This document shows positions 1,996 through 62,272 of a stretch of 64,000 bases of DNA, one piece after another (within the stretch, counting starts at the first letter, position 1; the number at the start of each line of letters is the position of its first letter). This DNA is from Chiloscyllium plagiosum (Eukaryota): assembly GCF_004010195.1 (NCBI RefSeq), contig NC_057735.1, positions 17,766,865-17,830,864 on the forward strand, read 5' to 3'. Made by a program: the position numbers and the translations under genes. The notes under the pieces were generated by a model. The model had not been told where the DNA came from. It made no database searches and was given only the letters and a program-made list of their open reading frames with translations.

Positions 1996-2752
1996 AAACT
2001 ACGAGGTATGTGATAGAGTTTGTTATCCTGGGCCAGTCAGGGAAGCCTTGGCTGATCAACATAACCAAAAGATTTGCAAATCCTCAGTTGAGGGCTGACT
2101 CTGAGCTGGTTGGCTACAGCCAGTGCACTATGCACTAGTAAAAAAGGGTGACTTGGTGACTTGCCTCTGTACAGTTATGCCACAATGCCAATGCGAGGGC
2201 TGTGCTGCCTCATTATGAGGTGAGGTCTGTGCTAAGGCTAAAAGGAGAACAAGAGGGTACCTCCTTTTGCAGCTGCCCCACAGGGAAGGCAGAAATGTTT
2301 TTCCATGCTGGGCCCAGTCAAGCAGGCCCAAGCAAGTCCCTCCAGTTGTGGCAACCCATGAAATTGGTGTTTTTCCCTTGGGCCATGAACCGCCCATTTC
2401 CAGTGGATTCTCCTGGAAGTCTTGGGTGTGCTACTTCTTTACAGTTAGTGGCTTCTCCGTGCACAGGGCTGTTGGGGGGATGTGGTTGGAGAGGGCACCA
2501 TTTTGCCACTGGCAAGGTGGCAGGCAGCACAGCCAGTGAAAATTGAACCTTGTATTGTTTTAATTAGGTGCCTGCCTTCAGTTGTTAGACAGCCATGTAC
2601 TTTTTATTCCACTATCATTACAATAACACAGGGGCAGAATTATGTTGGACGGTCATACTGATGTGGCTCCTTGAGCTTCATCTGCCCACCCTCCCTCCCA
2701 GTCTGGCACCCAATCGCTCCATTATCTCTTGCAGTAACCTTTCAAAATAATT

Positions 2753-2766
2753 GGTTATTTATTAAG
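2753..2766 (+). promoter_or_regulatory. HNF1-like site in gene A promoter
   Basis: GGTTATTTATTAAG vs consensus GGTTAATNATTAAC; lies in a block conserved with the gene C promoter. Confidence 0.5.
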
Positions 2767-2907
2767 TAAAACACTTAACAATGTGAAAAAAAAGCCTGGG
2801 GACACAAACGGTGAAACATTAGACCGAAAGAGATATAACTTTCTTGCATAACACTGCATGTTGTCTTTCCTGTGATGATGAATTTGAGCAGGCATTTTGG
2901 AAATAAT

Positions 2908-2971
2908 ATGACAGTCATTTTGAAATGTGGGATATTATTATTGATTCTCTTTGACTGTCAGGCAAGTGACT
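2908..2971 (+). CDS. Gla gene A exon 1, signal peptide MTVILKCGILLLILFDCQASD
   Basis: Hydrophobic core; phase-1 GTAAGT donor at 2972; closely similar to 41861-41924; in-frame upstream ATGs at 2875/2878. Confidence 0.8.
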
Positions 2972-5012
2972 GTAAGTATCACCTTTTTTCATGAAAATTC
3001 TCTGACCAATCTGTTTCTCATGTTTTTACACACTATTCCAGAATGCCTTTATTACCCCAAATGTGCTAATGAGTCAATGCCTGGCTGAGAATTGCTCGTG
3101 ATCTCATTAATTTGCTGCCACTTTGACACCTGAACTAACTACGCATTACTGGGGCAATTAACAAACCTTTGGTCTTCATTCTGAACTGTGAACTGTCTGT
3201 GCCTCCTTCTCTGTGCATCATCTCCTGAGACATAGTTGTGATCAAGGAATGGGATAATTTTTTTTAAAATTACGTTTTCGTACATTAATGCTTTACAAAG
3301 TATATAACTATTCCTAACTTTATGCTAGAATATTCATATTCATTTCTAGTTAGGTAATTAGGCAATTAGAAAATGCATTTTGGAATGTTCAGTAGATATT
3401 TTAAACCTATGATCCAGGCAAAAACCAGCAGTCAAAATGCTCTAGGTTACGAACGACCTAAAGCTGCCCGGATTTAGCCTCAGAAATCTGAATGGATGAC
3501 CCGGCAGCCCACTTAGAGCAGCAGTGAATTTCATTCAATCAATATCAAACCCTATTCATCCATGGAGATTATAGGTGAATGTAGTCATCCACTTCTCAAT
3601 GTGGGTTTTCCACAGACCTGAGAGGAAAATGTTGTTGTGGCTTTTCTGATAGATGAAGTCAACGGAGAAGAGGATCATTGATCAGATGAGATCATCTTTA
3701 TTTTCCTTTATTTTCTATATTTCCTTTATGAGGCTGGAAGGTGAGCAAGCATTCCTCTGGACTCAAGGGAAGTTGAGGCCTGTCCTATCCCATGTTCCCT
3801 TCTTCTTCTGAAGAAGGCTCACTGGGCCTGAAATGTTATCCCTGATTTCTTTGCACAGATTCTGCCACACCTGTTGTGTTTTTACTGGAATTTCTGTTTT
3901 TGCTCACTACTCCTCCCAGAAATCACCCTTTCCAAACCTACATAATGTCAACTGCCAAACATAGGCTACCTGCTATTGTTCTGAGGGAACAGGTATGAGA
4001 TGTATGTGGCAACATATAATTGAGTTAAAATTACATGGGCCTCTTTTCATTTACAGCAGATTTTTAATTTGGCTGACCACCCAGCGACTAGAAACCAACC
4101 CAAAGTTAGAAGTTGGGCCTGAATATGTATGTTGTAGGTATCAGGCTGACATCAACGTGACTACAACCCATACAGAAAGCCATCTAAATTAAAAGGCCAT
4201 AATGCATGTCATTATGCATGAGATAAAAGATCACAGAACGTGCATCTGAAATTTTGTTACAAGGCTTGTGTTAAAAAAATACAGATTACGTTGTGGTTTG
4301 TGTTTACACGCACAAACATATCAATCTCCCCCATGCCCGTAAATGGATATAAGTTCTGTTTACTGGAAGATCTGTTACAGGATTAGTGAGCAGACAGATT
4401 TATTACAGAAGTTCACCAACTATTGTTAGAGCAAATCACCACTATGCTCATTCATACAATGTGCTGCAAGTTATATTGACATTGGCTGCTGGTCACATGT
4501 TCTATATCCTGACTACTTGTTCATTAGCATGTTCCCTTTTAAAGTGATATCATAACAGATTATGTTGGGTGTGAGTCTATTTGACAGGATTGTGTCTTTC
4601 TTAAATTTTGAAAATGTCTCCATGGCTAAGCAAACATGAATAACTAAATTACTACTGGTATACTTATTTTGTTAATTTTCCTTTATGAGCCAGAGTATTT
4701 TAGCATCAAAAGAATTTGAAAGGAACTTCAACAAAATCATTCCTCAATAGTTTGATAGATTCCAATGACAGTGTTATATCCTGGGAGATTTTAAACCAAG
4801 GTGTTAGCAAATCCAGTGAAACTCCAGCTTAGAATCTTGACTTTTGACATACTTCATACAAAAGAATTTGCATCTATAAGCATCCTTCAGAATTTCTGGA
4901 TATTGCAAAATGGTCCAATCTAACAGGATTAAAATTGGATAATATACCAATACAATGTTTTATATACATCGGCACCAGATTTATTATTACATGACTATTC
5001 AATATTATTGAG

Positions 5013-5149
5013 TGTTTTTACAGAAATCAGCTGCTGCACGGTTTTTGCCTCGATTTGAGTTTTTGAAAGGGAATCTGGAAAGGGAGTGCTGTGAAGAAAC
5101 CTGTTCCAAAGAAGAGGTCCGGGAGGTTTATGAAAATGACCAACCAACT
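5013..5149 (+). CDS. Gla gene A exon 2, propeptide+Gla (L)[45 protein letters not shown]
   Basis: GNLEREC-x-EE-x-C-xx-EE-x-RE Gla signature; carboxylase-recognition propeptide; phase-0 GTAAGG donor; acceptor is GAG. Confidence 0.88.
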
Positions 5150-5289
5150 GTAAGGACTCCACTTTAACCTTCATTTTTGCCTCTTGTCCCATGTTCATTT
5201 TCTCATTTTCATTCTTTCTCTGATCACATATCTGTAAAGATATAAGGTATTCAGGATAAAGGCTGGCTGCAAGATGAAATTTGACTAAT

Positions 5290-5440
5290 GCACCTAACCT
5301 ACACATCCCTGAACACTATAAGCAATTTAGCATGGCCAATCCACCTAACCTGCACATCTTTGGATTGCGGGAGGAAACCAAAGCACTGGGAGGAAACCCA
5401 TGCGAACACAGGGAGAATGTGCAAACTCCACACAGTTGCC
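5290..5440 (-). mobile_element. HE1-like SINE fragment
   Basis: Reverse complement of the SINE body at 6900-7030. Confidence 0.7.
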
Positions 5441-5930
5441 CACACAATGTGATTGTTTAAGTAGTTATTGTTGGATTGTGCACTCTATGGAGGGGTGATT
5501 CTGTCATTCAGTTGCAAAGTGAGAAGCTACGCTCACTGTGTGTCTTTCTCACTATATCAACAATGCACTGCCCTTGACATTCCATTGGTTTAAATCTAAT
5601 GGAAAGAAGATGGCTGCAGTGTCCCTATAAGTTCTACTGTGTTCCTGTTCGCACCAGACTGAAGAATCACTACTGTTGGAATATCCTCCTGTGACACAAA
5701 CACTTGTGTCTTTCCATTGTCTCAACTTCCTTTTTCTATCATCTCTTCTTAAGACGTTTTCCGTCCTTTGACTTGACTTCAATGTTGTGTATCCCATGTG
5801 ATATTCTTTGTGCGGTTAAATAATTATATAAATAGACATTGTTAACATGTTTTTTGGTGCAAATTATTTGTTTTATTTGTGATGTACATTTCTAATTCCT
5901 CTGGATTTAAAATCTCTCTTTTCTTTGCAG

Positions 5931-5961
5931 GAAATATTCTGGTACCTTTACATTCTCAAGA
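5931..5961 (+). CDS. Gla gene A exon 3, aromatic stack EIFWYLYILK
   Basis: ttttctttgcag acceptor; FWxxY motif; phase-1 GTATGT donor; 31 nt. Confidence 0.8.
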
Positions 5962-6229
5962 GTATGTATGATAGTCTTTGATTTGTTAATTTAACAGAAA
6001 AAACATGGATGTGGATATGCTAGAGAAACTGTGTGTCTCCCTCCCATTCAATGGATCTTGATATCCTATAGATATTTTTAATCAACCTCTTTAGATATGT
6101 TATGACACATTTTAGGACACTTTGGGACTTGAACCTAACCTTTTAGTCCACAGGTAGCGACTCCTTGCTTAGCTGTATGGACAGGAAAATTCTATTTTTA
6201 GGAACAATAGAGACAGCAACATAGATTCA

Positions 6230-6592
6230 TAGATTATAGAGTCATAGAGATGTATAGCATGGATACAGACCCTTCGGTCCAACATGACCATGCCAACCAG
6301 ATAACCTAACCTAATCTAGTCCCATTTGCCAGCACTTGGCTCATATCCCTCTAAACCCTTTTCAATTCATATATCCATCCAGATGTCTTTTAATTCTGTA
6401 ATTGTACCAGCCTCCACCACTTCCTCTGGCAGCTCATTTCATGCACACACCACCCTCTGGGTGAAAATATTGCCTCTTAGGTCCCTTTTATATCTTTCCC
6501 CTCTCACCCTAAACCAATGCCCTCTAGTCCTGGGCTCCCCCACCCCAGGGAAAAGACCTTGTCTATTTATCCTATCCATGCTCCTCATGATT
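6230..6592 (-). mobile_element. CR1 LINE 3' end
   Basis: RTRGHWFRVRGERYKRDLRGNIFTQRVV is a typical CR1 ORF2 C-terminus. Confidence 0.85.
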
Positions 6593-6821
6593 TTCTTTGC
6601 AGTCAAGAAATTTCCAGTGACTGTTCCCCCACAAGAAGAAAAGTCCAAAACTATTGACTTTTATAAAGCCTGCATTCTAACATTAACACACTGCAGGTGG
6701 CCTAAACAAAATGACAGTCAAGATTCCATCCCTCAGGGGGAGAAAGCCCATCCTCAAGAGTTGCAGGCCAATCTGATTGACCGCCAGCTCTGTCAGATCA
6801 AGTAGTGCCAGAACTACTTGT

Positions 6822-7135
6822 GGGCGGCATGGTGGCACAGTAGTTAGCACTGCTGCCTCACAGCGCCAGAGACCCGGGTTCAATTCCCGCCTCAGGCGAC
6901 TGACTGTGTGGAGTTTGCACGTTCTCCCCGTGTCTGTGTGGGTTTCCTCCGGGTGCTCCGGTTTCCTCCCACCATCCAAAGATGTGCAGGGTCAGGTGAA
7001 TTGGCCATACTAAATTGCCTGTAGTGTTAGGTAAGGGGTAAATGTAGGGGTAGGGGTGGGTTTCGCTTCGGCGGGTCGGTGTGGACTTGTTGGGCCGAAG
7101 GGCCTGTTTCCACACTGTAATCTAATCTAATCTAA
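6822..7135 (+). mobile_element. Full-length tRNA-derived HE1-like SINE
   Basis: A box tggcacagtag, B box ggttcaattcc, central 'gtggagtttgcacgttctccccgtgtct' domain, CR1-derived tail and (taatc)n. Confidence 0.85.
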
Positions 7136-7171
7136 TGTAAACTCAGTAATGGATGCTATTGGGACTGAAGA

Positions 7172-8105
7172 CATAGAACATAGAACATAGAACAGTATAG
7201 CACAGTACATGCCCTTCAGCCCTCAATATTGTGCCAGCCTTTTATCCTACTCTAAGATCAAACTAACCTACATACCCTTCATTGCACTATCTTCCATGTG
7301 CCTATCCAAGAGTCACTTAAATGTCCCTAATGTATCTGACTCTACTGCTGCTGGCAATGCATTCCACGCACCACCACTCTCTATATAAAGAACCTAGCTC
7401 TGACATCTCCCTTAAACCTTCCTCCAATTACCTTAAAGTTATGCCCCATCATGATAGACATTTCCTCCATGGGAAAAAGTCTCTGGCTATCCACTCTATC
7501 TATGCCTCATGACATCTTGTATACCTCTATCAAGTCACCTCTTATCCTTCTCCACTTTGGTGAGAAAAGCTATGCCCTCCAGGCCAGGCAGCATCCTGCT
7601 TAATCTCCTCTGCACTTTCTCGAAGTCCTCCATATCTTTCCTATAATGAGGTGACCAGAACTGAACACAATATTCCAAGTGTGGTCTAACCAGCGCTCTA
7701 TAGCGCTGCCGCATAACCTTGCGGCTCTTAAACTCAATCCCCCTGCTAATGAAAACCAACACACCATACACCCTATCAAGTTGGGTGGCAACTTTGAGGG
7801 ATCTATGGACATGGACCCCAAGATCCTCTGTTCCTTCACATTGCTAGGAATCCAGCCTTTAACTCTGTCTTCTACATTAAAATTTGACCTTCCAAAGTGA
7901 ATCACTTCACACTTTTCCAGATTAAACTCCATCCTCCACTATCAGTCCAGTTCTGCATACTGTCAATGTCCCATTGCAACTCCCAGCAGCCCTCCACACT
8001 ATCCACAACTCCACCAACCTTTGTGCCTTCAGCAAACCTACTAACCTACCCTTCCACTTCCTCATCCAAATCATTTATGAAAATCACAAAGAGCAAGGGT
8101 CCTGG
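7172..8105 (-). mobile_element. CR1 LINE RT 3' fragment
   Basis: MEFNLEKCEVIHFG and LVRPHLEYCVQFWSP motifs; (catagaa)n tail. Confidence 0.88.
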
Positions 8106-8699
8106 GGGAGACAATTTCAGGAAGATCATTGACATTGTTCAGAAGGACTTTTAGGATAAGATGAATAGTCCACCCTAGAAGGGTGTTGGGAGTGGGCATG
8201 TTTTGGATGTAAGTCAAGGAGGTAAAATCGTGGGTCTATGATCTTTCAGAGGGCTGTTCCAATTGCACCCAAGGATTCCAAATGATATATCCCTTTTCTT
8301 TCATTGTTAAAAAAGTCACAAAAATAGAAGTTTCTAGAAAATTTCAGCGGGTCTGGCAGCATCTGTGAAGAAAGATGAAAGGTAATTTTTCAGGTCCGAT
8401 GACTCTTCCTCAGAACTGGTCTCGAAACATTAACCCTGATTTCTCTTCACAGATGCTGCCAGACCTCCTGAGCTTTGCCAGCAACTTCTGTTTTGTTCCT
8501 GGTTTCAGCATCCACGGTTCTCCTATGCCTATCAATTCCCCAGAGTATTATGGAAGTGAAAGCTGATTAAGGTCTTTATGCTGACAACCATTGGCCACTT
8601 AAGACCTGCATTAGGCTGAAGGTTGAAAGTGTAGTTGGTAAAACACCCACCCTGCATTTGAGGGAACAGGTTGGGAGTTGAGGGACAGGAAAGCAAATA

Positions 8700-9790
8700 C
8701 TCAACATATTTTACATGCCCCTCCCTATATGCAAGTGCACCACCCTCTCCTTTTCCTTCAGGAGCTGAAGGACACTATGTGCTGCCCACTTCCTGATGGA
8801 CCTGTAGGCAAAGGTGTTTTTCTTTGTAAATTTCTCAACAAAGGACAGGTGATACAGGACGGTCCAACTCTTGAAGCATTCTGCGGCAACAAGGCCAGTC
8901 ACATCCTTTGCAACTCCGGGGTCAGGTAGAACCTCAGTATGTAGTGACACTTGGCGTTTTTGTACTGAGCGTCTATGCACAGCTTGATGCAGCCACACAC
9001 AAAGGTGGCCATCAGGATGAGGGTGGTGTTGTGTACATTCAATCCCCCCTTATTCAGAGCTTTGTACATGTTGCCTCTGTAGACACAGTGCATCTTAGAT
9101 TAGCAGATGATTGGGTCAGATTTGCAATACATACAACATTTGAGAAAATGCCTCATACCTGATGACCAGTTTTTTACCCAGAATAGAGAGGGTGTGGTGC
9201 TCCCAAAAGTACAATTTCTACCTCACCTTGGCAATGCGCTCCTCCCAAAACTTTGCACATACCAAGGCCACTCTGAACCATATTCCCAACCATACCTTTC
9301 AGGTAGTCTTTCCTGTTGGTGAAGGGGATAAAGAATCAATCAGCCCAGTTCCCAAAGAACATGACTTCGCTCTTGCCTCGATGTATCTTTGCTCCAGAAG
9401 CCAGTTCAAACTGGTCACAGATGTTTATGAGTCTGCGCACTGACAGCGGATCTGAGCAGAAAACAGTGACAAGAGAGGCTTTCACCTGAAGGTGTCCGCT
9501 GTCTGGAATAGTCGCCCCTCTCAGATTCATTGAGACTACACTAATCATTTTGGTGTACAACAGTTGGATCCAAATGCGGATTCCCTCCCCGAAGCTCATT
9601 TTGGACAGTGGATCCCACATGTAGGTGTGTGAAATCTTGTCAAAGGCCTCCTCCCAGTCCTGGCTGATGAGGCAGCAATCCAACACCGCCCCCTCACATC
9701 CCCTCCCCTCCGCCCCCGCCCTACATGTATGCGATCGTATCCCTGAGAAGCGCGTGACTGTCAGAGATCATTCTTCCTGGTACAATCTTT
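8700..9790 (-). mobile_element. L1/Tx1-clade LINE RT fragment
   Basis: EAFDKISHTYMW and FELASGAKIHRGKSEVMF motifs; frameshifted. Confidence 0.75.
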
Positions 9791-10158
9791 GAATCATCAT
9801 TACAGTGAGAACAATGTTAAATTGCAGTATGAGCTTTTGGAGTAATGGCTTTGCATATCATAGTTTAGAAAAGTGGTCTTTTGACTCATATGATCTTTAA
9901 AACATTTGAAATAACAAGAAACATAGAGACAGCTTCTAATACACAATGGCAATGAGATACAATCCCTAGGCTGCATTGTTGTTATTTTGGATATGAGTTT
10001 GTAAAATTTTAATTTCAGTATCTGCATACTTGGTTTATTTCTACATCTGCTTATGTTATATCACAACTAAATTTTCACATGATTGCAAACTTGTGCTAAT
10101 GACAAGTTTATACTAATTTGTCTTTGGTCTGAGTAACATGAAGTTCTGATTATTTCAG

Positions 10159-10314
10159 AGAATTCAAATCTAAAACACATTCTGGATAATGCAGCGGAAA
10201 TTCTTGAAGAGCAAATGAAAATTAATGAACTTAGAAAGGAGCTCACTGGAAAGAAACAAGAAATCAATGATTTAAAAGAACAACTCTTAGGAAAGTTAGA
10301 AAGTTGTATCGATG
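10159..10314 (+). CDS. Gla gene A exon 4, coiled coil (K)NSNLKHILDNAAEILEEQMKINELRKELTGKKQEINDLKEQLLGKLESCID
   Basis: ttatttcag acceptor; symmetric phase 1-1, 156 nt, open frame; I/L heptads; homologous to 32728-32912. Confidence 0.78.
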
Positions 10315-10488
10315 GTAAATAATAGGAAAGACATTTTACTTTACTTGTTATATTCTGCTAAGGCTGAATCAAACTATGAAGTTTATGTTAAATTTGTAAT
10401 GTTAAACTTCTTGATCAATAATGCTAATGTATGAATGATAAATGACATAAACTGAATGTAGTTTGGGCCTGTTTCATTTGTCTTTTAG

Positions 10489-19952: not shown

Positions 19953-20825
19953 TTTCGGGTGTAGGTTTGCTCACTGAGCTGTAGGTTTGATATTCAGACA
20001 TTTCATTACCTGGCTAGGTAACATCATCAGTGACGACCTCCAAGTGAAGCGAAGCTGTTGTCTCCTGCTTTCTATTTATATCTTTCTCCTGGATGGGGTT
20101 CCTGAAGTTTGTGGTGATGTCATTTCCTGTTTGTTTTCTGAGGGGTTGATAGATGGCATCTAGATCTATGTGTTTGTTTATGGCGTTGTGGTTGGAGTGC
20201 CAGAACACTGTATCAGAACACTATTCCAACGAGCCACCACACACTGCAGCATAGACGAACTTCGGAAAACAGAAGAGAACCACCTATACAACGTATTCAA
20301 GAAGGATACTCAAATAATACAGTGAGTAGATTCCTCAAGAACAAACCACGACAAGCAGACCAAACACAGCCTGAAACCCTAACCACCTTACCATGCATCA
20401 AAGAAGTTTCAGAAATGACAGCCACACTACTAAGACCCCTCAAAATCCTAGTAGCACACAAACCCACCAACACACTCAAACAAAAACTAACAAACTTAAA
20501 AGACCCAGTACAACCCATGGAAAAAACACAATGTCATCTACAAACTTCCATGCAAGGACTGCCACAAACACTACGTAGGACTAACAGGAAGAAAGTTAGC
20601 CACCAGGATACACGAACACCAGCTAGCCACAAAAAGACACGACCCTCTAGGAGAAAGATATAAATAGAAAGCAGGAGACAACAGCTTCGCTTCACTTGGA
20701 GGTTACCACTGATGATGTTACCTAGCCAGGTAATGAAACGTCTGGATATCAAACCTACAGCTCAGTGAGCAAACCTACACCCTAAACCTCAACCTGAGCT
20801 ACAAACCTTCACAAACCTTGCAAAA
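19953..20825 (+). mobile_element. Penelope-like element (RT tail + GIY-YIG) with inverted pLTR
   Basis: VIYKLPCKDCHKHYVG..GRKLATRIHEH; ~19957-20090 inverted to ~20649-20782; 12-bp TSD attgtcacagaa at 19941-19952 and 20826-20837. Confidence 0.88.
20706..20745 (+). ncRNA. Minimal type I hammerhead ribozyme motif in Penelope pLTR
   Basis: CCA-CTGATGA-tg-TTACCT(agcc)AGGTAA-t-GAAAC-GTC-TGG: both core boxes, stem II hairpin, CCA/TGG stem I. Confidence 0.7.
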
Positions 20826-22469: not shown

Positions 22470-22542
22470 ATGAACATGAATATTATTTTGAAGTATGAGA
22501 CAATCTTTTTGTTTCTCTTTTGGTCCTCTCAAGTGAACTGCA
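22470..22542 (+). CDS. Gla gene B exon 1, signal peptide MNMNIILKYETIFLFLFWSSQVNC
   Basis: Aligns with gene A/C signal peptides (ILK...LF..Q); phase-1 GTAAGT donor at 22543. Confidence 0.75.
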
Positions 22543-25233: not shown

Positions 25234-25394
25234 TGTTTTTGCAGAAATCACTTGCCAACACCTTCCTTTCCCGGATCCGGAGGGCTAATGACGGCCTGGA
25301 GGAACTACTACTTGATAATATGGAAAGAGAATGCTGTGAAGAAAAGTGTTTGCCAGAAGAGACTCAAGAGGTTTTGAGAAATTCTCCAAAACCT
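25234..25394 (+). CDS. Gla gene B exon 2, propeptide+Gla (M)FLQKSLANTFLSRIRR/ANDGLEELLLDNMERECCEEKCLPEETQEVLRNSPKP
   Basis: TAG acceptor; RIRR/AN furin site; Glu at 6,7,14,16,19,20,25,26,29; phase-0 GTAAGG donor. Confidence 0.9.
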
Positions 25395-27556: not shown

Positions 27557-27581
27557 GAACAAACTTGGATTACGCCCAATG
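27557..27581 (+). CDS. Gla gene B exon 3, degenerate aromatic stack EQTWITPN
   Basis: ttgtttttgcag acceptor; 25 nt as in F7/F9/F10 exon; Trp retained; GTATGT donor. Confidence 0.75.
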
Positions 27582-28947: not shown

Positions 28948-28983
28948 GCAGCGTTAGACCTCTCCCCTGTTTTCTGAGCCAAT
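28948..28983 (+). CDS. Gla gene B probable exon 4, linker (G)SVRPLPCFLSQ
   Basis: cttttttgtacag acceptor; GTAAGT donor; 36 nt, phase 1-1. Confidence 0.55.
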
Positions 28984-32727: not shown

Positions 32728-32912
32728 CACGCTGTGCAAAGGACAATCTGAAAGAGGTCTATTCCATAGGAAAGAAAATCTTTGAAAAACAAAAGGAAGT
32801 TGTCTATCTTCATCAGCAACTGATCCATCGCAAGTCGTACATTTTGTACCGGATGAGCAATCTATTTCAAAGCATAGAACGTTTGGTTTGGTTGATATCA
32901 GATCAGCTTTAA
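32728..32912 (+). CDS. Gla gene B terminal exon, coiled coil (S)RCAKDNLKEVYSIGKKIFEKQKEVVYLHQQLIHRKSYILYRMSNLFQSIERLVWLISDQL*
   Basis: ttctttcttgttcatag acceptor, phase 1; heptads align without gaps to gene A exon 4; AATAAA at 33007-33012. Confidence 0.72.
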
Positions 32913-40060: not shown

Positions 40061-41711
40061 TGGCCTATAGGATCTACTGTCATAGTTGCCCCTCGTCCTG
40101 AAACATCACTATATTTTCCCTGGTCTATGTGTCCAAACGTTTTGGTGTGAATCAAATGGTGAGTAATATCTGGGGCAGGGAGTTATATAACAAAGAGGAG
40201 ACTTAAATGCCAGGATGGGCCAGGGATAAGGGAGTCCACAGACCTATGCCCCGTAAGGTGCATGGGTCTTTGTGTGACATTGTTCTCCTTCCTCGTGACC
40301 CTCCCTCACACCCACTGCCTTCCCCGTGCCACCCTGCCCCATTGCACACTTTCAATTTCCAGCATGATGGAAGGGGACAGTGAGCACTCAATGATCAGTG
40401 GCTTCCAGCCACTACCTCTACATGTCAGTAAGGCTCTGACCATCTATATCCCACTCTTTGAATTTACTGTTGCCTCCTTTATAATTATCATTACCCACCT
40501 CCATCCAGCCTGCAGCCCTAAATCCTGAGGAATAGTTTGCCATGTCTCCTACACAGGCAGCATCGACCCAACACCAACCTCATCCCCAACCCAACCCCCA
40601 CCCAGTCCCCTACCTTCCCCATAGCCTTTCACCCTCCAGAATGGCTGCTGTGGAGCCAAAGAACTAACAGTGACAAACTACCTGGTCTGCACAGACAGAA
40701 ACTCCTTCCCCACACCCCCTACCAATTGAAACATCCTGATCTGATGACTAACTGTGGGCAATTCCCTGGACTGGCATCAGAGGCTGTCCAGGACTAACTG
40801 TGACAGAACCCTTGTTTAATGGGTGCCTCCATGTGCATATTTGAGGACAACCTCCCTGAGAATTTGAGACAGGTTTGCTTGTTTGTTGCACATACAATGC
40901 ACTGCATTGCAGGCTGCAAGCACATGTGCAGGCATGAGATTGACAATAGCCGTCCAGCAAGATGTATGCCCCTTGACTGAGGAGTGTTGAGCAGCAGGGC
41001 AAGCTGCCCCGGTTGTATCACTGCCCTAATCAGTATGACAAGGCAAGGCAAACTATAGATGGCATTAAAGAGAACTGTTGTTAAACCTGTATAGGGAAGG
41101 ACAAGATGCCTCCACTTGGTGCCCTCCACAGAGGAGGCAGAAATTTCACTTCTCTGCCAAGCCAGCAGGCTGACCCTGGCACCAAGGAGAACTATCACTC
41201 ACCTCCAAAGTTGCTATTAGGGAAATGGGAGGAGTCATTGCCTCCCGGGGCCACCCTTTTAGCCAAATAGCCACCAATTCCAATGGCTCCAACACATTCC
41301 ACTCAAAAGCTTCTAGGAGACTGCCTCCCTTCATCTGGCAATTCTCCCATATGATAATGGCAAAATGCCAGTAGTCTCACAAAATGGGCCCCTAAGGTGC
41401 TCTTAGTTACTTAAACTAGCTGTTTGTCTCCAGTTGGTAGTTAGCTCCTATGTTTACAGTCCTGTCTCTAGTAAAATGGCCTGGGGTTGGGACTACATTG
41501 ATGGGATATGCCCTCTCAATGCTTCCCGACATTTTACCAGCCCTCACCTCCCCCCTCTCCAACTCTCCATGGGGTACCAGTAAGATTCTACCCCATGTTA
41601 AACAGTTACAATATGTATCTGCTTTGAGATAAGAAATTATATATTTTGCGGACACCATCAATACTGAAATAAGTGCGCTGTGAACTGCTGTGACAGCATT
41701 TCAAAATAATT

Positions 41712-41725
41712 GGTTACTTATTAAG
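41712..41725 (+). promoter_or_regulatory. HNF1-like site in gene C promoter
   Basis: GGTTACTTATTAAG in a block shared with 2740-2775. Confidence 0.5.
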
Positions 41726-41860
41726 CAAAACATTTTAGCAGTGATAGTAAAACACTGACTATACAAACAGTGAAACATCAGTTTGAGTGAAGTCCAATTA
41801 GCTAATACAAAATTGCATCTTGACTTTGCTGTACATTTGAGCAGGAATTTTGGGAGTAAA

Positions 41861-41924
41861 ATGACAGTAATTTTGAGCTACGGGATAATATCATTGCTTC
41901 TCTTTGGCTGTCAAGCAAATGACT
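41861..41924 (+). CDS. Gla gene C exon 1, signal peptide MTVILSYGIISLLLFGCQAND
   Basis: aaaATGa start; hydrophobic core; phase-1 GTAAGT donor. Confidence 0.82.
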
Positions 41925-43918: not shown

Positions 43919-44130
43919 AGGAAATGTGTTGCTGGAAAAGCGCAGCAGGTCAGGCAGCATCCAGGGAACAGGAGAATCGACGTTTCGGGCATAAGCCCTT
44001 CTTCAGGAAGAAGGGCTTATGCCCGAAACATCGATTCTCCTGTTCCCTGGATGCTGCCTGACCTGCTGCGCTTTTCCAGCAACACATTTCCAGCTCTGAT
44101 CTCCAGCATCTGCAGACCTCACTTTCTCCT
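43919..44130. mobile_element. Palindromic Penelope pLTR insertion
   Basis: 85-bp inverted arms 43920-44004 and 44007-44091; 13-bp TSD catctattgagta. Confidence 0.85.
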
Positions 44131-44271
44131 CATCTATTGAGTATGTTTTGCAACTTCAAACTATTACAACAGACACTTCACACAACAATATTATCATGGT
44201 ACAATAAAATATCACATAAAATCTACACAGGCACCTGATTTATTATTGCATTATTATTCAAAAATATGGAG

Positions 44272-44435
44272 TATTTTTACAGAAATCAGCTGCTGCACAG
44301 TTCCTGTTTCGATTTCGTAGAGCTAACAATTGGAGATTTGAGGAGCTTAAGTCTGGGAATTTGGAAAGAGAGTGTATAGAAGAAACCTGTTCCAAAGAAG
44401 AGGTCCGAGAGATTTTTGAAGATGATCAAAAAACT
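44272..44435 (+). CDS. Gla gene C exon 2, propeptide+Gla (L)[54 protein letters not shown]
   Basis: Canonical Gla domain with Glu at 7,8,15,17,20,21,26,27,30,33; RFRR furin site; GTAAGG donor; acceptor is GAG. Confidence 0.92.
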
Positions 44436-45501: not shown

Positions 45502-45526
45502 GAAATTTTCTGGGACTTCTATACAG
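45502..45526 (+). CDS. Gla gene C exon 3, aromatic stack EIFWDFYT
   Basis: 25-nt exon, FWxxY, phase 0-1, long pyrimidine tract. Confidence 0.88.
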
Positions 45527-48504: not shown

Positions 48505-48618
48505 GCAGAACAATATGCGATTCATCTCCCTGTCAAAATAATGGGCGGTGTGTAGATTTGTACGGCGAATTTTATTGCAAATGTCTTGGAGGATTTAATG
48601 GAACATTCTGCGAACAAG
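48505..48618 (+). CDS. Gla gene C exon 4, EGF1 (G)RTICDSSPCQNNGRCVDLYGEFYCKCLGGFNGTFCEQ
   Basis: Six-Cys EGF; 114 nt, phase 1-1, like F7/F9/F10 EGF1; strong acceptor. Confidence 0.92.
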
Positions 48619-48943
48619 GTCTGAGAATTTTTGTCACAAAATTCATTCTTTCTCTTGAGATTCCCATAGATTCTCCAATCCCAATGGTGTCACTAGTTGT
48701 GTACTGTGAGGGCAAGGTGTTCTTACATTATCTATCATAATCTATTCACATAAATTGAGTGCAATAATAATTGGTGCAGACCTTTCTTTAGTACTTTTTC
48801 TAGGTCTTATACTGAATCAGGTGATAATAACAACTGTGGTATGGGTAATGATCACTAGGAACAGGTTTTCCTGTAGCAACCCAAACCAGGACCAAAGATA
48901 GAAGATCACAGCAAGATTGATTAAATGACTGATAGAATATGAT

Positions 48944-49163
48944 GAGGTAAAAACAATGACTGCAGATGCTGGAAACCAGATTCTGGATTAGTGGTGCTGG
49001 AAGAGCACAGCAGTTCAGGCAGCATCCGAAGAGCAGTAAAATCGACGTTTTGGACAAAAGCCCTTAAATTCCTGATGAAGGGCTTTTGCCCGAAACGTCT
49101 ATTTTACTGCTCCTCAGATGCTGCCTGAACTGCTGTGCTCTTCCAGCACCACTAATCCAGAAT
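48944..49163. mobile_element. Palindromic Penelope pLTR insertion
   Basis: Inverted arms; near-TSD gatagaa(t/c)atgat. Confidence 0.75.
49068..49103 (+). ncRNA. Minimal hammerhead ribozyme core
   Basis: CTGATGA-a-GGGC tttt GCCC-GAAAC-GTC. Confidence 0.65.
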
Positions 49164-53824: not shown

Positions 53825-53955
53825 ATATCAATGAGTGTGAGCTCATGAACCCTTGCCCACCAGGATCAACGTGCGTAGATGGAGTCAATAACTTTACTTG
53901 TAATTGTCCACCTGAAGGGTGCAATTTATTCAGAAACGACACTGGATTTTACTAA
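53825..53955 (+). CDS. Gla gene C terminal exon, Ca-binding EGF (D)[42 protein letters not shown]
   Basis: ttttccag acceptor, phase 1; DINEC cbEGF signature; TAA at 53953-53955; AATAAA at 54145-54150. Confidence 0.88.
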
Positions 53956-58075: not shown

Positions 58076-60019
58076 TACAGAGGTCTGAGCAATGTGGACT
58101 ATGGACAGATTTGTAACAGAACTGAACAAGAAATCCAGCGAGTCTATCTCCATGTCAAGAGTATCTCGTGCCATCTTTTATGCTTGTCAAAAACAATGTG
58201 CCAAGTTCCTCGCTAGTCAGAAACCAGTTGCCAATTAAAGGGAAATTATAACCTGTTAAACACCCATTTGATGACCCAATTTGCCTCATTAGTCCAGCTT
58301 TCTATCTTAACAAACTCACCAACAAGCTGGACATCCAGCAAATATGAGATAGAAACCAGAGTAGGTAATTGGCATATTCAACTTGCTCTGAATAACTTCC
58401 AAATTGTGTTTAATCAAACTGAAAGTCAGTGCACAATCCATGGGAATCAGCTACATGCACCTCTTGTACATAGACATTAACATCTAGTAGCTGTCAATCC
58501 ATCACAACCATGTCACCTCTCTGATACAGTTGCAAATCTCTTAAGAAGCAAAGATTCAAATTACAAGGTGCATTGAAAGGCTGCAACAAAGGCACTTTGT
58601 GTCCAAGGACAAGAACCTAACTCAAGTGTTGGACTGGGCTGTATGCTAGGGCTGAACCATTTCTCTTAGCATTCAATTATTTAGCACCTACCTGCATTCC
58701 CACATTATCCATGCCTTGCATTGGCTTGCCATGCCAGCCTGTTATAACATTGCATATCATTAAAGCAGAAGTTGATAGATTATCTCTTGATTGGAGAGGT
58801 CATTGCCTGGCACTTGTGAGGCATGAATGTTACTTGCCACTTTTCAGCCCAAGCCTTACTTCATTTGGACAGATTGTTTCTATATCTGAAGAGTTGCAAA
58901 TGTGTTGAATTTGTGCAATCACCAGTGAACATCCCACTTCTAACCTTATGATGAATAGAAGTTCATTACTGGAATGCCTAGTCAAAGGAACACCTTGAAT
59001 TGAGCTGATTCACCTCCAAGAACCATAATCATTTTGTGTTAAGTATGACTCAGAGTAGTGGAGAGTTTTCCCCAATTCGCACTGACTCCAGTTTTGCTAT
59101 TTCAACATTATATTTGAACTGTCAAGTATTTCAAACCTTTATTATTGTGCATAGCTATAGAACCATAGAGTAATATTGCAATTATGTCATGGAGCTGCTC
59201 CTCAATGGGCATAAATAACAGTTTGAGCAGAGTTGTGGGATAAGCTTGAAGTCTAGCCATGTGGATGTTCGAAACATGGAGAAGATCCAACTAGCTTATT
59301 TAGACTATAGAAATCATTGAAAAGTCTTTCAATAATGTAAGATTAGGCCCAACTAAATCACAGACTACCATATATTGCATCTTTAGATTTATTTAATAGT
59401 TTACATGTACCTAAATACAGTGAAAAATGTTGTTTCGCATGTTATTTGTAAAGTTTTGCCATACACTAACACCATCTTGTATCACTGATTGTATTGCATG
59501 TTATGTTATAAAATGTTATAAAAAAGCCTAATCCTGAAGACAGTCATTGACTATAAGAAATAGGAACAGAAATAGGGCATTCAGCACGTCAAGCCCGCTC
59601 CAACAATCAGTTGGATCATTGCTGATTGGACACTATTCATACCCAATTTGGATATCCTTGGATTCAAGATGGTGCCAACACAGGGAGCTCTCTACAACAG
59701 ATCATATTCTCACATTTCTTTCAATTGTTCTACACTTTCTACTGTATCTTTGTATTTCTTACTCTGTTCTATCACTCTATGATCTTTGTATGGTATGATC
59801 TGCCTGTATTGAGACTAAAACAAAGCTTTTCACTGTACTTAGGTACGCTGACAATAATAAACCAATTCTTCAATTTCCTGTTTTCCTCATAAACCTTGTT
59901 TGCCCCCGATCAATTAGTGAAGCCAAATTCATGGATGTGAGCTTAAATGCACACAAAAATCTTAGAGCAGAAAGTAATTTAAAACGAATTCTGCAAATAC
60001 ACACAAGTACAGGCTACAA

Positions 60020-60320
60020 AACTTATTGACACGCGCATGCGTGGAGCGATGTGGCTGGCTTGAGGCAAGCGGCACGGATTTAGAAGCGCATGCGTGAAAA
60101 CTGACGCACGCGCATTGGGGAGTGTGGCCTTTGTGGCGGCGCGGGTCGGGCATTGGGAATATTCCCGTGCTCTCGGTAAAGTGGAACATTTAAAATATGC
60201 GGAGCGTTTCGCGTTTAGTCTTTTATAAAATCGGAGAGACTGGGTAGGGGGAGTTTGTGGGGAGGGTGGTTGGAGAGGTGATTGGGGTCCGGGGTGTGGG
60301 AGGGGAAGGGCGTGACCGGT
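60020..60320 (+). promoter_or_regulatory. CpG-rich housekeeping promoter / probable non-coding exon 1 of C1orf74
   Basis: CpG-dense non-repeat segment; NRF1-type GCGCATGCGT at 60033-60042 and 60086-60095; candidate donor G|GTAAAG at 60176. Confidence 0.7.
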
Positions 60321-60724
60321 GATGATAGAGTCTGTCCCATAAACCCTTCCCCCGGAGCAACATGTCCAGAGACAGCGGTTCCTGGTTTTAAACCCACTGG
60401 CTCTGAATTGACGAGTGTGGTACAGGCCTGACCGGTGGGGAAGCAATGGCTGCGTTTGAATCATGGCGGCGTGGGAATTTAGCGAGGATAGGATTGAACC
60501 CTGCAGTTATGGATTTTGCTGCCACTCTGTTCTTAAAGGATCAGAGAGCTTCAGTCGCATCAAATTGCTGCCTTCAAAAAGGAAGCTTGAGGGATAGGTT
60601 TGTGACTGTTGGAATGCAGGAAAGAAAACCGACGTGGGAAAGCAAAATTGAACTTACTTGCTCTTACCTGACCTAATTTTCAGAGAAGGATTTTGCAATG
60701 GCTTACCCCTTTTGCCCGAACTAA

Positions 60725-61205: not shown

Positions 61206-61414
61206 GTGAGACAATATTAGTGGTCTTTGTTGGCTCTCTATTCTCTCTTTAAAAAAGAAAGCAGACAGTACTAGAGTGTAAATGTACAGGATCTGGGTAA
61301 TATTGGTATTATAAATGAAATTACTTGTAAGTCACAGCATGAAAGAGTGTTATTCTGGCAAAATATCAAATTTTTGCTTGTATATTTTTCAGTTCCTGAA
61401 ATTAGTTTTTTTTC

Positions 61415-62272
61415 ATGATCTTCTTATCTGCAAATAGATTTTGTCTGATTTCTACCATAATGGAGACTATACTGAAAGAACAACTGATCTTTGCTGCACA
61501 GAAGACCTTAAGAATAGGACAAAAGAAGAATTTTTCTGCATCACGTTGCTTGGGTCTCTTTGCTGAGATCCTAGCTGTAGATTCGGAATTGAAGCCTGCT
61601 TTCCTGTTTGATTACAGTCTAGCAAAATCTGAACAGGTCCAGAACTACATCCAGGAGATACAGAAGATTGGGCTTTTTTCTCAGGATTTACATATCCTCA
61701 GCATGGAAGAAAACGTACTGATAATAAACTTAAACAAAACCATAAGACATTTGGAAAGAACATTGCAAGAAAATAGGGTTCCAATCATTGATGTTTCTGC
61801 ACATAGGTCCAGCCCAAGCCTAGCTGAGACATGCGTTAGTAAACAAGTGAAGGCCCAGTTGGATCTACTTTTGAAGCATCTGAAATCCCAAGTAGTTCAA
61901 AAGGGAAGATGTGAATTAGGTGTTGTTAGTGCAAGTAAAATTTTCTCTTCAGAGTGGAATCTATGTACAATGTTTGGATTTCTCCTTGGGTTCCCAGCTG
62001 CATACTGGTTTGATTTTAGCACATCTTTTGAGAATTGTTTGAGCATGACTGAGCTTCGGGTTTTCTCTGTCTCTGCTTTTTGTCACCAAATCACTAAAAA
62101 CCTCAAGCATCAAATGTATTCGTTCAGTATTCCAGAAATCCTTTACTTGGAGTTACAGAGCATTGTAGCATGTTGGAACAGAGATCTTCAGTCAGACTTT
62201 ATCAAGCAGTCCAATTTCTCTGAACTCAATATTTCCACAGAGATCACCTGTCAGCCTGCAATTACACTTTAA
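61415..62272 (+). CDS. C1orf74: UPF0739 protein C1orf74 homolog (single coding exon; start at 61415 or at METILK, 61459)
   Basis: Recognised motifs AAQKTL, EILAV..LKPAFLFD, WNLCTMFGFLLGFP, YSFSIPE and C-terminal PAITL, as recalled from human C1orf74. Confidence 0.9.
   Translation: MIFLSANRFCLISTIMETILKEQLIFAAQKTLRIGQKKNFSASRCLGLFAEILAVDSELKPAFLFDYSLAKSEQVQNYIQEIQKIGLFSQDLHILSMEENVLIINLNKTIRHLERTLQENRVPIIDVSAHRSSPSLAETCVSKQVKAQLDLLLKHLKSQVVQKGRCELGVVSASKIFSSEWNLCTMFGFLLGFPAAYWFDFSTSFENCLSMTELRVFSVSAFCHQITKNLKHQMYSFSIPEILYLELQSIVACWNRDLQSDFIKQSNFSELNISTEITCQPAITL

Follow-up and report, generated by a model that had tools for sequence, protein, structure and literature searches.

Related Gla proteins and the four-gene cluster

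Coagulation factors have the build Gla-EGF-EGF-protease, and exons of 25 nt and 114 nt occur in factor IX. Matrix Gla protein retains its carboxylase recognition sequence in the mature protein. The second EGF of the coagulation factors is described as the FXa-inhibition type (PMC9643190), the Gla domain as containing 9-13 Glu (PMC9669250), and the propeptide residues recognized by the carboxylase as F-16, A-10 and L-6 (10.1101/2025.02.18.638829). Gas6 and protein S are described as Gla proteins without enzymatic activity that link phosphatidylserine to a partner (PMC5686386). For the neighbouring paralogues SIGLEC11 and SIGLEC16, the ligand-binding 5' part is reported to be kept alike by repeated conversion in each lineage, whereas the 3' parts differ (PMC5701461).

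Four small Gla genes in tandem, in the order D-A-B-C, were identified in Chiloscyllium plagiosum. Genes A, B and C lie in the window (the whole stretch of 64,000 nt analysed here) and D lies just upstream. IRF6-like and C1orf74-like genes flank the locus. By exon structure, D, A and B are coil-type genes and C is a Gla-EGF-EGF gene (Table 1). Like the light chain of factors VII, IX and X, protein C and protein Z, the products contain a signal peptide (judged by eye from the hydrophobic N-terminus), propeptide, Gla domain and aromatic stack, and factor X precursors are their best counterparts in the PDB (E 3e-24, profile positions 6-90). Unlike the coagulation factors, the four genes carry no protease domain in their models (the stop follows the coil or EGF2) or by Pfam, and in A, D and B a coil stands where the EGFs would be. 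A tblastn search for a protease exon with P0111 (partial protease) matched only Gla and EGF exons in 264 kb including 7,034 N.

The exon sizes and phases of gene C after exon 2 are those of the coagulation factor light chain (25 nt, 114 nt). Its second EGF is not of the FXa-inhibition type of coagulation factors: Pfam found EGF/hEGF in C and P0015 and did not find PF14670 at E 0.1, and A has no EGF. The EGF2 of C scored 100-132 against the final EGF of a lungfish Gla-EGF-EGF protein and those of three Gla-EGF x3-4 proteins, versus 35-81 for five coagulation-type proteins. The gene C family may bear on the origin of the clotting-factor light chain. Unlike Gas6 and protein S, the shark Gla proteins have no laminin-G domains and comprise 130-170 residues. 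To our knowledge, the Gla+coil form has no counterpart, and no paper describing the family was found in the open literature, subscription journals being mostly outside the coverage. Two protease-free architectures (Gla+coil and Gla-EGF-EGF), hidden behind automatic RefSeq names that for most family proteins read 'factor X-like' or 'protein Z-like', are added to the vertebrate vitamin K-dependent inventory.

Splicing and expression are based on RefSeq models, which equal our own exon calls for A and C (C from exon 2 on), and on conservation. The RefSeq model of gene A starts at the ATG at 2875, a second ATG is present at 2908, and a poly(A) signal (AATAAA) lies at 10573, downstream of the stop. 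Alternative splicing of A onto EGF exons via a possible phase-1 donor before the stop (10314/10315) was rejected because there is no EGF exon between A and B, the poly(A) signal follows and most relatives end there.

Table 1. Features of genes A, B and C in the window
Feature	Position	Strand	Basis or remark
Gene A proximal upstream region, homologous to C and D	2740..2874	+	70% to C, 80% to D, 162 columns, block 2740-2907
Gene A exon 1 coding part, signal peptide, phase-1 donor	2875..2971	+	exon calls, RefSeq model
Gene A intron 1	2972..5012	+	C-intron-1-homologous blocks 3156-3258, 3659-3810, 4689-4877, 4958-5012
Gene A exon 2, propeptide and Gla, extra Cys, phase-0 donor	5013..5149	+	Pfam Gla 57.9 bits
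Start of gene A intron 2, last non-coding C-similar stretch, 3' edge of homogenised tract	5150..5280	+	score 34, 0/200 shuffles
Gene A exon 3, aromatic stack, 31 nt, phase 0-1	5931..5961	+	goes with coil module
Gene A exon 4, predicted coiled coil, C-terminal Cys, stop 10320-10322	10159..10322	+	exon calls, RefSeq model
Gene B exon 1, signal peptide	22470..22542	+	23/24 aa identical to whale shark P0091
Gene B exon 2, propeptide and Gla, intact cleavage site, extra Cys	25234..25394	+	exon calls
Gene B exon 3, 25 nt	27557..27581	+	exon calls
Gene B mini-exon, 36 nt, phase 1-1	28948..28983	+	also in whale shark orthologue
Gene B last exon, divergent coil paralogue	32728..32912	+	23% to A exon 4
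Gene C upstream region and exon 1, ATG 41861	41699..41924	+	self-BLAST, exon calls
Gene C exon 2, propeptide and canonical Gla, 164 nt	44272..44435	+	exon calls, Pfam
Gene C exon 3, 25 nt	45502..45526	+	exon calls
Gene C exon 4, EGF1, 114 nt, phase 1-1	48505..48618	+	exon calls, Pfam
Gene C exon 5, family-specific terminal EGF ending CPxxGC, stop; no protease	53825..53955	+	exon calls, RefSeq

The 5' block shared by genes A and C

The C-like front half of gene A is best explained by recurrent conversion of the promoter-to-exon-2 block between coil and EGF genes (probability about 0.8). Genes A and C have in common the promoter, exons 1 and 2, intron 1 and ~130 nt at the start of intron 2; their non-coding similarity is 66-77%. 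Collinear blocks were found by self-BLAST at 2740-2981/41699-41934 (74%), 3156-3258/42289-42388 (75%), 3659-3810/42961-43093 (68%), 4689-4877/43733-43912 (71%) and 4962-5157/44221-44443 (74%). A genome search with block 4689-4877 gave two matches, the block itself and gene D, and missed the C copy; the count is no proof of rarity. The A-C DNA identities of exons 1 and 2 are 53/64 and 112/137, and those of A-B are 44/63 and 92/137, respectively.

The start of intron 2 is significantly similar between A and C (0/200 shuffles reach the score), whereas its end (113/200) and both ends of intron 3 compared (147/200 and 102/200) are at shuffle level. Exon 3 shows 17/25 identical nt (0/500 shuffles), but it measures 31 nt in A and 25 nt in C and its flanks fail to align. 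The edge of the homogenised tract lies in early intron 2. The earlier note had aligned A with C from the promoter to exon 3 and placed a switch in the phase-1 intron 3; the alignment stands for the promoter, exons 1-2 and the intron 1 blocks, and the position of the switch is contradicted. Its description of A as a mosaic is sound, although not peculiar to A, since gene D has the same build.

Intron 1 and the promoter are common to A, D and C. Over 631 non-coding columns, the distances are 0.22 (A-D), 0.34 (A-C) and 0.34 (D-C), and 99 site patterns unite A and D versus 46 and 48 for the other pairings. A tract with non-coding DNA and a sharp edge is seen for A, D and C in the Chiloscyllium plagiosum genome; conversion tracts outside this genome are deduced from proteins. 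Three groupings are compatible with the N-half protein tree, namely a Chiloscyllium-only A+D+C clade (p 0.155), A with B (p 0.167) and skate B with the ray genes (p 0.056), and dating the end of conversion therefore depends on the shared Cys and on non-coding DNA. In the line leading to bamboo sharks, exchange would have been over before the A/D duplication, after which A would have lost the cleavage site and the Gla N-terminal loop; exon 2 of A, from which both are lost, is 27 nt shorter than that of C and D.

Coil family and grouping of the 5' halves in sharks and rays

The earlier note took exon 4 of A to be homologous to the last exon of B. At the protein level, the local score is 45 against a shuffle mean of 23 (0/2000 shuffles reach 45), but the DNA similarity is not significant (148/500 shuffles). 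With heptad-preserving shuffles, the four B-type coils are above the null in 43, 32, 65 and 2 of 5000, and the A-type and B-type coils are matched by hhalign with a probability of 91%. An unrelated coiled coil, P0093, scored above every B protein on the coil HMM, so the homology leans on shared position and splice phase. Judged from these sequences, the two coil exons are likely homologous, and B is not a recent donor. No donor of the coil exon was found in a search of 1.84 billion representatives (6 matches, namely 4 family members and 2 generic coiled coils), and Pfam gave only sub-threshold coil families, including Fib_alpha (E 0.001-0.02).

An extra Gla cysteine is present in A, D and B. 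It occurs in 6/6 carpet-shark coil proteins and in 0/2 other full B proteins (whale shark, skate); on this distribution it is a carpet-shark coil-gene trait and not inherited from B, so that its presence in A and B, as claimed earlier, holds and its derivation from B does not. Micro-conversion of this Cys from A/D into B was also considered and set aside, the 13 identical nt around the Cys being too short to distinguish it from convergence.

Both the Gla+coil and the Gla-EGF-EGF genes occur in sharks and in rays, and gene B has orthologues in whale shark and skate. In the coil tree, 16 A-type rows (14 shark/ray species) and 4 B-type rows form reciprocal clades (100/98), each containing sharks and batoids, and the AU test rejects a grouping of B with the A/D coils of Chiloscyllium (p-AU 0.0008). 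A single recent exon shuffle in intron 3, joining the C 5' half to the B last exon, is highly improbable in view of these data. The A-C non-coding similarity, the protein similarity of the two coil exons, the extra Cys of A and B and the unrejected grouping of A with B in the N-half tree agree with it. However, exon 4 of A is 60% identical to Heterodontus, 37-41% to ray coils and only 23% to B, whale shark and skate B lack the extra Cys, and A and C show no similarity in the parts of intron 3 that were compared. The four intron stretches set side by side for A and B all score at chance level (reached by 72-198 of 200 shuffles), and the promoter (0/200) and 3' flank (1/200) have weak scores of 27 and 30. 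The order D-A-B-C does not fit either, because one B-C unequal crossover would place the hybrid between B and C. The intron-3 exon shuffle is thus refuted as 'recent', the age given to it earlier, and survives solely as an account of how the coil genes arose long ago.

Under recurrent conversion, a copy of an old Gla-EGF gene would have gained a coil exon in place of its EGF exons before the shark/ray split (roughly 250-300 million years ago). This copy would then have duplicated into B and the A/D line; B would have stayed largely apart from 5' exchange, and the A/D-type gene and C would have kept swapping the 5' block, independently in early carpet sharks, basking shark, smooth-hound, catsharks and rays.

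The 5' halves of coil and EGF genes group by lineage and the coil and EGF exons by gene type; per-exon trees with shark and ray homologues are incongruent, and the earlier suggestion that conversion or unequal crossover was involved is borne out. The pattern is shared with SIGLEC11/SIGLEC16. Unlike these paired receptors, the genes encode predicted soluble Gla proteins with unrelated modules as tails (coil versus EGF-EGF), they span all elasmobranchs instead of primates, and any opposing functions are hypothetical.

The N-half trees mix the architectures, with coil/EGF pairs in Cetorhinus, Mustelus and Scyliorhinus canicula and all 12 ray coil and EGF rows in one clade (99/99). AU tests reject an EGF-gene clade on the N-half (p 1.4e-6) and a coil-gene clade on the N-half (p 3.1e-6), exon 2 alone (4e-59) and exon 1 alone (2.6e-4). 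The N-half identity in Pristis and Mustelus is 93% within species versus 83% and 79% to the best other-species coil gene, respectively, and two catsharks share 45 and 44 of 49 columns within species and 37-41 between. In only 6/13 coil rows (42-80 columns) is the EGF gene of the same species clearly the best N-half match; it is tied or within a point in 3/13 and lower in 4/13 (A, Rhincodon, Hemitrygon and Mobula hypostoma). For exon 3, the best EGF match from another species exceeds the identity within species in 12/12 comparisons, and the best coil match from another species exceeds it in 10 and equals it in 2, although such best-of-many comparisons favour lower within-species identity.

All homologues are gene predictions, the adjacency of coil and EGF genes in other species is deduced from near-consecutive accessions on contigs of equal length, and the tree alignments are short (22-80 columns), with many forks without resolution. 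Isoforms and fused or duplicate models (P0087, P0094, P0097, P0105, P0109, P0112, P0020 and P0088) were left out of the trees, as was Mustelus P0014 from the later ones, its 3' end being neither coil nor EGF. The partial P0003 and five distant rows were left out of the AU tests of the coil-gene clade, the Chiloscyllium-only A+D+C clade, A with B and skate B with the ray genes; the trees of exon 1 alone and exon 2 alone also omit outgroups, Heterodontus and all B rows. In S. torazame, model P0019 visibly fuses neighbouring genes. The Heterodontus coil gene has a distant N-half (46-56%), and its EGF model P0103 has no Gla. No chimaera member was seen in length- and word-limited searches, the Callorhinchus match being a factor X fragment.

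Heads made alike in each lineage by parallel selection, lineage composition or mis-annotated shared exons, with no conversion, are improbable. The Gla heads are constrained as well as short, the coil and EGF models of Pristis have an identical exon 1, and the fusion in P0019 is of the kind this explanation needs; but the signal peptides encoded by exon 1 also group by lineage, intron 1 and the promoter are common to A, D and C, and exon 2 coil/EGF pairs always differ at several residues and are thus separate exons. In addition, exon 2 of the carpet-shark coil and EGF genes (D, C, both Stegostoma, both Rhincodon) carries an insertion of one residue that the other elasmobranch rows lack.

Repeated unequal crossover (birth and death), in which each lineage forms a new C-head/coil-tail hybrid and loses the older coil gene, would look like conversion and is the less unlikely of these alternatives, though still unlikely. 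The cluster turns over, as seen from the A/D tandem duplication (~13.8 kb), the extra EGF paralogues in Hypanus and Mobula and the double-Gla model in Hemitrygon, and a single crossover per event would suffice because the shared tract includes the promoter. Each event, however, duplicates B too and needs the loss of the older coil gene and one B, whereas the Chiloscyllium plagiosum genome contains one B-type coil exon only, with none between D and A, and most species gave one A-type coil gene in homologue searches. With recurrent conversion as the preferred reading, the family offers a natural test of partial concerted evolution across the very long span since the shark-ray split. Some lineages appear to be still converting and others to have escaped, the Gla head having decayed in most escaped copies, and Gla-head trees of these genes are no guide to orthology.

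Gla heads and predicted function

The Pfam Gla domain (PF00594, cut-off 27 bits) was detected in A, D, C and whale shark B with 57.9, 45.3, 70.5 and 51.3 bits, respectively. The Gla regions of A, D, B and C contain 10, 9, 10 and 11 Glu, and the two-Cys loop is present, with a third Cys in A, D and B. F-16, A-10 and L-6 occur at the aligned spacing in A, D and C; the gene B propeptide has the F and L, and its A appears to lie one place off the aligned column of C. The basic cleavage site and the mature Ala-Asn N-terminus/omega loop are present in B and C, altered in D and missing in A, and are kept in 10/15 assessable A-type coil proteins. Gene A is likely a released copy whose product keeps the propeptide and has a Gla that would no longer fold for membrane insertion. 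Since the cleavage site is lost, A and D would keep the carboxylase recognition sequence, a likeness to matrix Gla protein in principle only, as that protein differs in Gla type, gene structure and locus.

The products are likely secreted, vitamin K-carboxylated and non-enzymatic, with the same head and different tails. The Gla head would bind calcium and phosphatidylserine, and the EGF pair would bind a partner protein. In the A-type coil, the heptad position is hydrophobic or Cys in 110/112 cases and the terminal Cys is present in 15/16 proteins; AlphaFold gives a helix at 91-139 with a block pLDDT of 91-97 over residues 101-140 (whole-model pTM 0.36). Such a coil, hydrophobic at every seventh position and with a conserved terminal Cys, would form a parallel, probably disulfide-linked dimer. 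In the ESM Atlas, A had no usable match and the EGF form matched only generic Gla-EGF clusters. Conversion would hold both kinds co-expressed and aimed at one surface, where the coil form would act as a bivalent competitor of the EGF form.

A wider and rather doubtful proposal is that these genes may represent an undescribed elasmobranch vitamin K-dependent system, in which C would be a relic protease-free Gla-EGF(n) protein predating the vertebrate clotting factors (also in lungfish), paired with a dimeric Gla-coil antagonist, the head and promoter being kept in step by conversion since before the shark/ray split. If true, a soluble 'same head, opposite tail' pair would control access to phosphatidylserine surfaces in clotting or dead-cell clearance. 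The aromatic stack is F-W in A, D and C and W alone in B.

Gene content of the cluster

The window spans G000:C26:17766865-17830864. Three Gla exons, all on the forward strand, are present in it and belong to genes A, B and C. Gene A contains four coding exons, which encode the signal peptide, the propeptide and Gla domain, an aromatic stack (31 nt) and a coiled coil, respectively. Genes B and C contain five coding exons each, including a 36-nt mini-exon in B and two EGF modules followed by a stop in C. All exon models have GT-AG edges and open frames, and the model of A is identical to XP_043572568.1 (RefSeq, Chiloscyllium plagiosum). Exon 4 of A used as a query retrieved a second copy (75% identical) approximately 1.4 kb upstream of the window. 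This copy is part of a fourth gene, D, which has the same four exons as A; its exon 2 is of full length, but the cleavage site encoded there is altered. The exon 2 acceptor of A, C and D is weak, and several RefSeq models (P0088, P0021 and P0115) instead begin within exon 2.

An IRF-domain gene, in our reading a probable IRF6, lies 37 kb upstream of the cluster D-A-B-C. We take the downstream DUF4504 gene to be C1orf74-like, and the coiled-coil exon beyond it is presumably TRAF3IP3-like. With these names, the Gla cluster is placed inside the IRF6-C1orf74-TRAF3IP3 block; the human block is not known to contain a Gla gene.

Features in and around the Gla cluster (G000:C26, coordinates on NC_057735.1; L003 and L004, stretches upstream of the window)
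Feature	Location	Strand	Remark
Gene D (Gla and coil)	L004:9064-9127; L003:2731-2894, 5264-5294, 8417-8580 (G000:C26:17755928-17765444)		RefSeq XP_043572566.1
IRF-domain exons	G000:C26:17718624-17719598	+	Upstream of cluster
DUF4504 gene, single-exon open frame	Window 61406-62269	+	Downstream of cluster
CpG-rich stretch	Window ~60000-60500		Upstream of DUF4504 frame; resembles its promoter and first exon
Coiled-coil exon	~23 kb beyond window end	-	Downstream of cluster
Exon 2 acceptors of A, C, D	Window 5004-5012, 44264-44271; L003:2722-2730		Weak GAG, no pyrimidine tract
Inverted repeat pair, 144 nt	Window 19953-20096 and 20643-20786		94% identity
Open frame	Window 20142-20660		Retroelement-like look; flanked by the 144-nt repeats
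Near-palindromes in C and D introns	Window 43922-44130, 48936-49160; L003:2069-2290		Short repeat family, copies paired head to head

Similarity of gene A to genes C and B

The earlier note described A as a recent mosaic of a C-like 5' half and a B-like last exon, with a switch in intron 3. The A-C blocks are present, collinear and 68-75% identical. Identity of A to C is 83% in exon 1 and 82% in exon 2, versus 70% and 67%, respectively, to B. The edge of A-C homology lies in early intron 2 instead of intron 3. The first 130 nt of A intron 2 score above all 200 shuffles against C, and similarity is at shuffle level where intron 2 ends (113 of 200) and at either end of intron 3 (147 and 102 of 200). 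Gene D retains approximately 350 nt more C-like intron 2 than A. None of the A-B intron stretches tested scored above chance. Likeness of A exon 4 to the last exon of B was recovered in protein (0 of 2000 shuffles reached the score) but not in DNA (148 of 500). The likeness persists under heptad-preserving shuffles of the coil, of which 43 of 5000 reached the score for this genome's B, and 32, 65 and 2 of 5000 for three other B-type coils. The hhalign probability is 91%, although one unrelated coiled coil scores above the B proteins on the coil HMM.

Homologues were searched using exon 4, the coil-gene alignment and the EGF-gene alignment as queries. A-type Gla and coil proteins were found in 14 species, nine sharks and five rays, and 16 of these proteins entered the analysis. 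Gla-EGF-EGF proteins came from lungfish as well as from sharks and rays. The whale shark has a B orthologue, mini-exon included; a likely one is present in skate, and a B-type coil fragment lies within a fused catshark model. Because A-type, B-type and EGF relatives occur across sharks and rays, all three gene types are older than the shark-batoid split. A-type and B-type coil exons form reciprocal clades (100/98), and A exon 4 shares 89% identity with its C. punctatum counterpart, 60% with Heterodontus, 37-41% with rays and 23% with B. A recent derivation of the A coil from B is contradicted by rejection of a clade of Chiloscyllium A/D and B coils (p 0.0008). With 1 of 12 inner branches starred, the EGF tree has little resolution but sets sharks apart from rays and holds carpet sharks together.

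Proposed exchange of heads between coil and EGF genes

The per-exon trees that the earlier note called for are discordant, since coils group by gene type and heads (signal peptide, propeptide and Gla domain) by lineage. In head trees, the coil gene is joined to the EGF gene of its own species in Cetorhinus, Mustelus and S. canicula (starred); the four catshark rows fall together, and so do the 12 ray rows, in a single clade. Grouping of heads by architecture is rejected with 24 rows (p 1.4e-6), with 34 rows (p 3.1e-6), and for exon 2 (p 4e-59) and exon 1 (p 2.6e-4) separately. Head paralogues are 93% identical within Pristis and within Mustelus, and those of two catsharks match at 45/49 and 44/49 within species versus 37-41/49 between species. 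Counter to this pattern, just 6 of 13 rows have their own-species partner as the clear best head match; in 3 it is tied and in 4 another row matches better. In stingrays and mantas, these columns do not separate exchange from speciation in time. Exon 3 does not track the head, which agrees with a homology edge in intron 2.

From the observed gene structure, tract edge and tree discordance, we infer, with a probability of about 0.8, an old swap of modules, which would have been followed by recurrent conversion of the 5' block between coil and EGF genes and then by escape from conversion in carpet sharks. Repeated unequal crossover, which would yield the same trees, is improbable, as it demands repeated losses and only one B-type coil exon was found in the genome. 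In carpet sharks, the heads of Stegostoma and Rhincodon fall together by gene type, which places the end of exchange before the split of these two. A one-residue insertion in exon 2 is confined to carpet sharks, where coil and EGF genes share it, and places one exchange on their stem.

Over 631 non-coding columns, the Jukes-Cantor distance is 0.22 for A-D and 0.34 for both A-C and D-C, and 99 site patterns unite A and D versus 46 and 48. The last homogenisation with C is therefore older than the A/D duplication, the unit of which is approximately 13.8 kb (73-91% identity). Exon 1 of D is 94% identical to that of C, which may be a retained ancestral state, since almost the same signal peptide occurs in Mustelus and Cetorhinus. 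An extra Cys occurs in 6/6 carpet-shark coil proteins, 0/3 carpet-shark EGF proteins, 0/10 other coil proteins and 1/3 B proteins, and thus arose in the coil gene once exchange at that codon had stopped. A and B do share this residue, as first noticed; in this genome's B it stems either from convergence or from a short tract passed on by A/D. Taken by themselves, protein trees reject neither a Chiloscyllium-only A+D+C clade (p 0.155) nor A grouped with B (p 0.167). When the two Chiloscyllium species are compared, A shows 83% identity (window 2875-10322 versus P0002), with a one-residue difference in the exon 2 deletion, and D shows 96% in a partial model (P0004 versus P0003); A may be either faster-evolving or not a strict orthologue.

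Protein features and related families

Of the Gla protein features given in PMC9669250 and 10.1101/2025.02.18.638829, protein A retains the residues recognised by the carboxylase, 10 Glu, the F-W stack and the Cys loop, but not the cleavage site or the Gla N-terminal loop. Five of the 15 coil proteins that could be assessed lack the cleavage site (A of both Chiloscyllium species, D, Rhincodon and Heterodontus), and none of the five bears a sign of recent exchange. Two divergent EGF paralogues from rays lack the site as well. Stegostoma has kept it despite having escaped exchange. One heptad position of the coil is almost invariant (hydrophobic in 110 of 112), the terminal Cys is found in 15 of 16 proteins, and AlphaFold gives a single confident helix (91-139) and a low-confidence head. 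Under established coiled-coil rules, Ile/Leu at the near-invariant heptad position, with its partner position mixed and a Cys in the core, would suggest a parallel disulfide-linked dimer. Tentatively, the products are predicted to be secreted calcium/phosphatidylserine binders, with the coil form possibly competing, as a bivalent binder, with the EGF adaptor and with A possibly a released derivative.

Identity with factor X or protein Z was rejected because the protease is absent. Likeness to the clotting-factor light chain lies in component parts, and to SIGLEC11/16 (PMC5701461) in mode of evolution. Gla and coil or protease-free Gla-EGF-EGF architectures were not noticed in the accessible part of the clotting-factor catalogue PMC9643190, and no published description of this gene family was found in the open literature, most subscription journals being outside coverage. 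The distinctive terminal EGF of C is of a type shared by lungfish and by three Gla-EGF x3-4 proteins, not by coagulation factors. The protease-free Gla-EGF(2-4) proteins that carry it (P0108 and P0112 of Protopterus annectens; P0099, P0101 and P0102) suggest an old family persisting in lungfish and beyond.

The Hemitrygon akajei model P0094 contains two Gla domains (Gla-EGF-Gla-EGF-EGF-EGF), from either a real internal duplication or fused tandem genes. In Heterodontus francisci, the EGF model P0103 is without Gla, and the coil protein P0009 combines a well-conserved coil (60% to A) with a distant head (46-56%), which may be an unconverted ancestral one.
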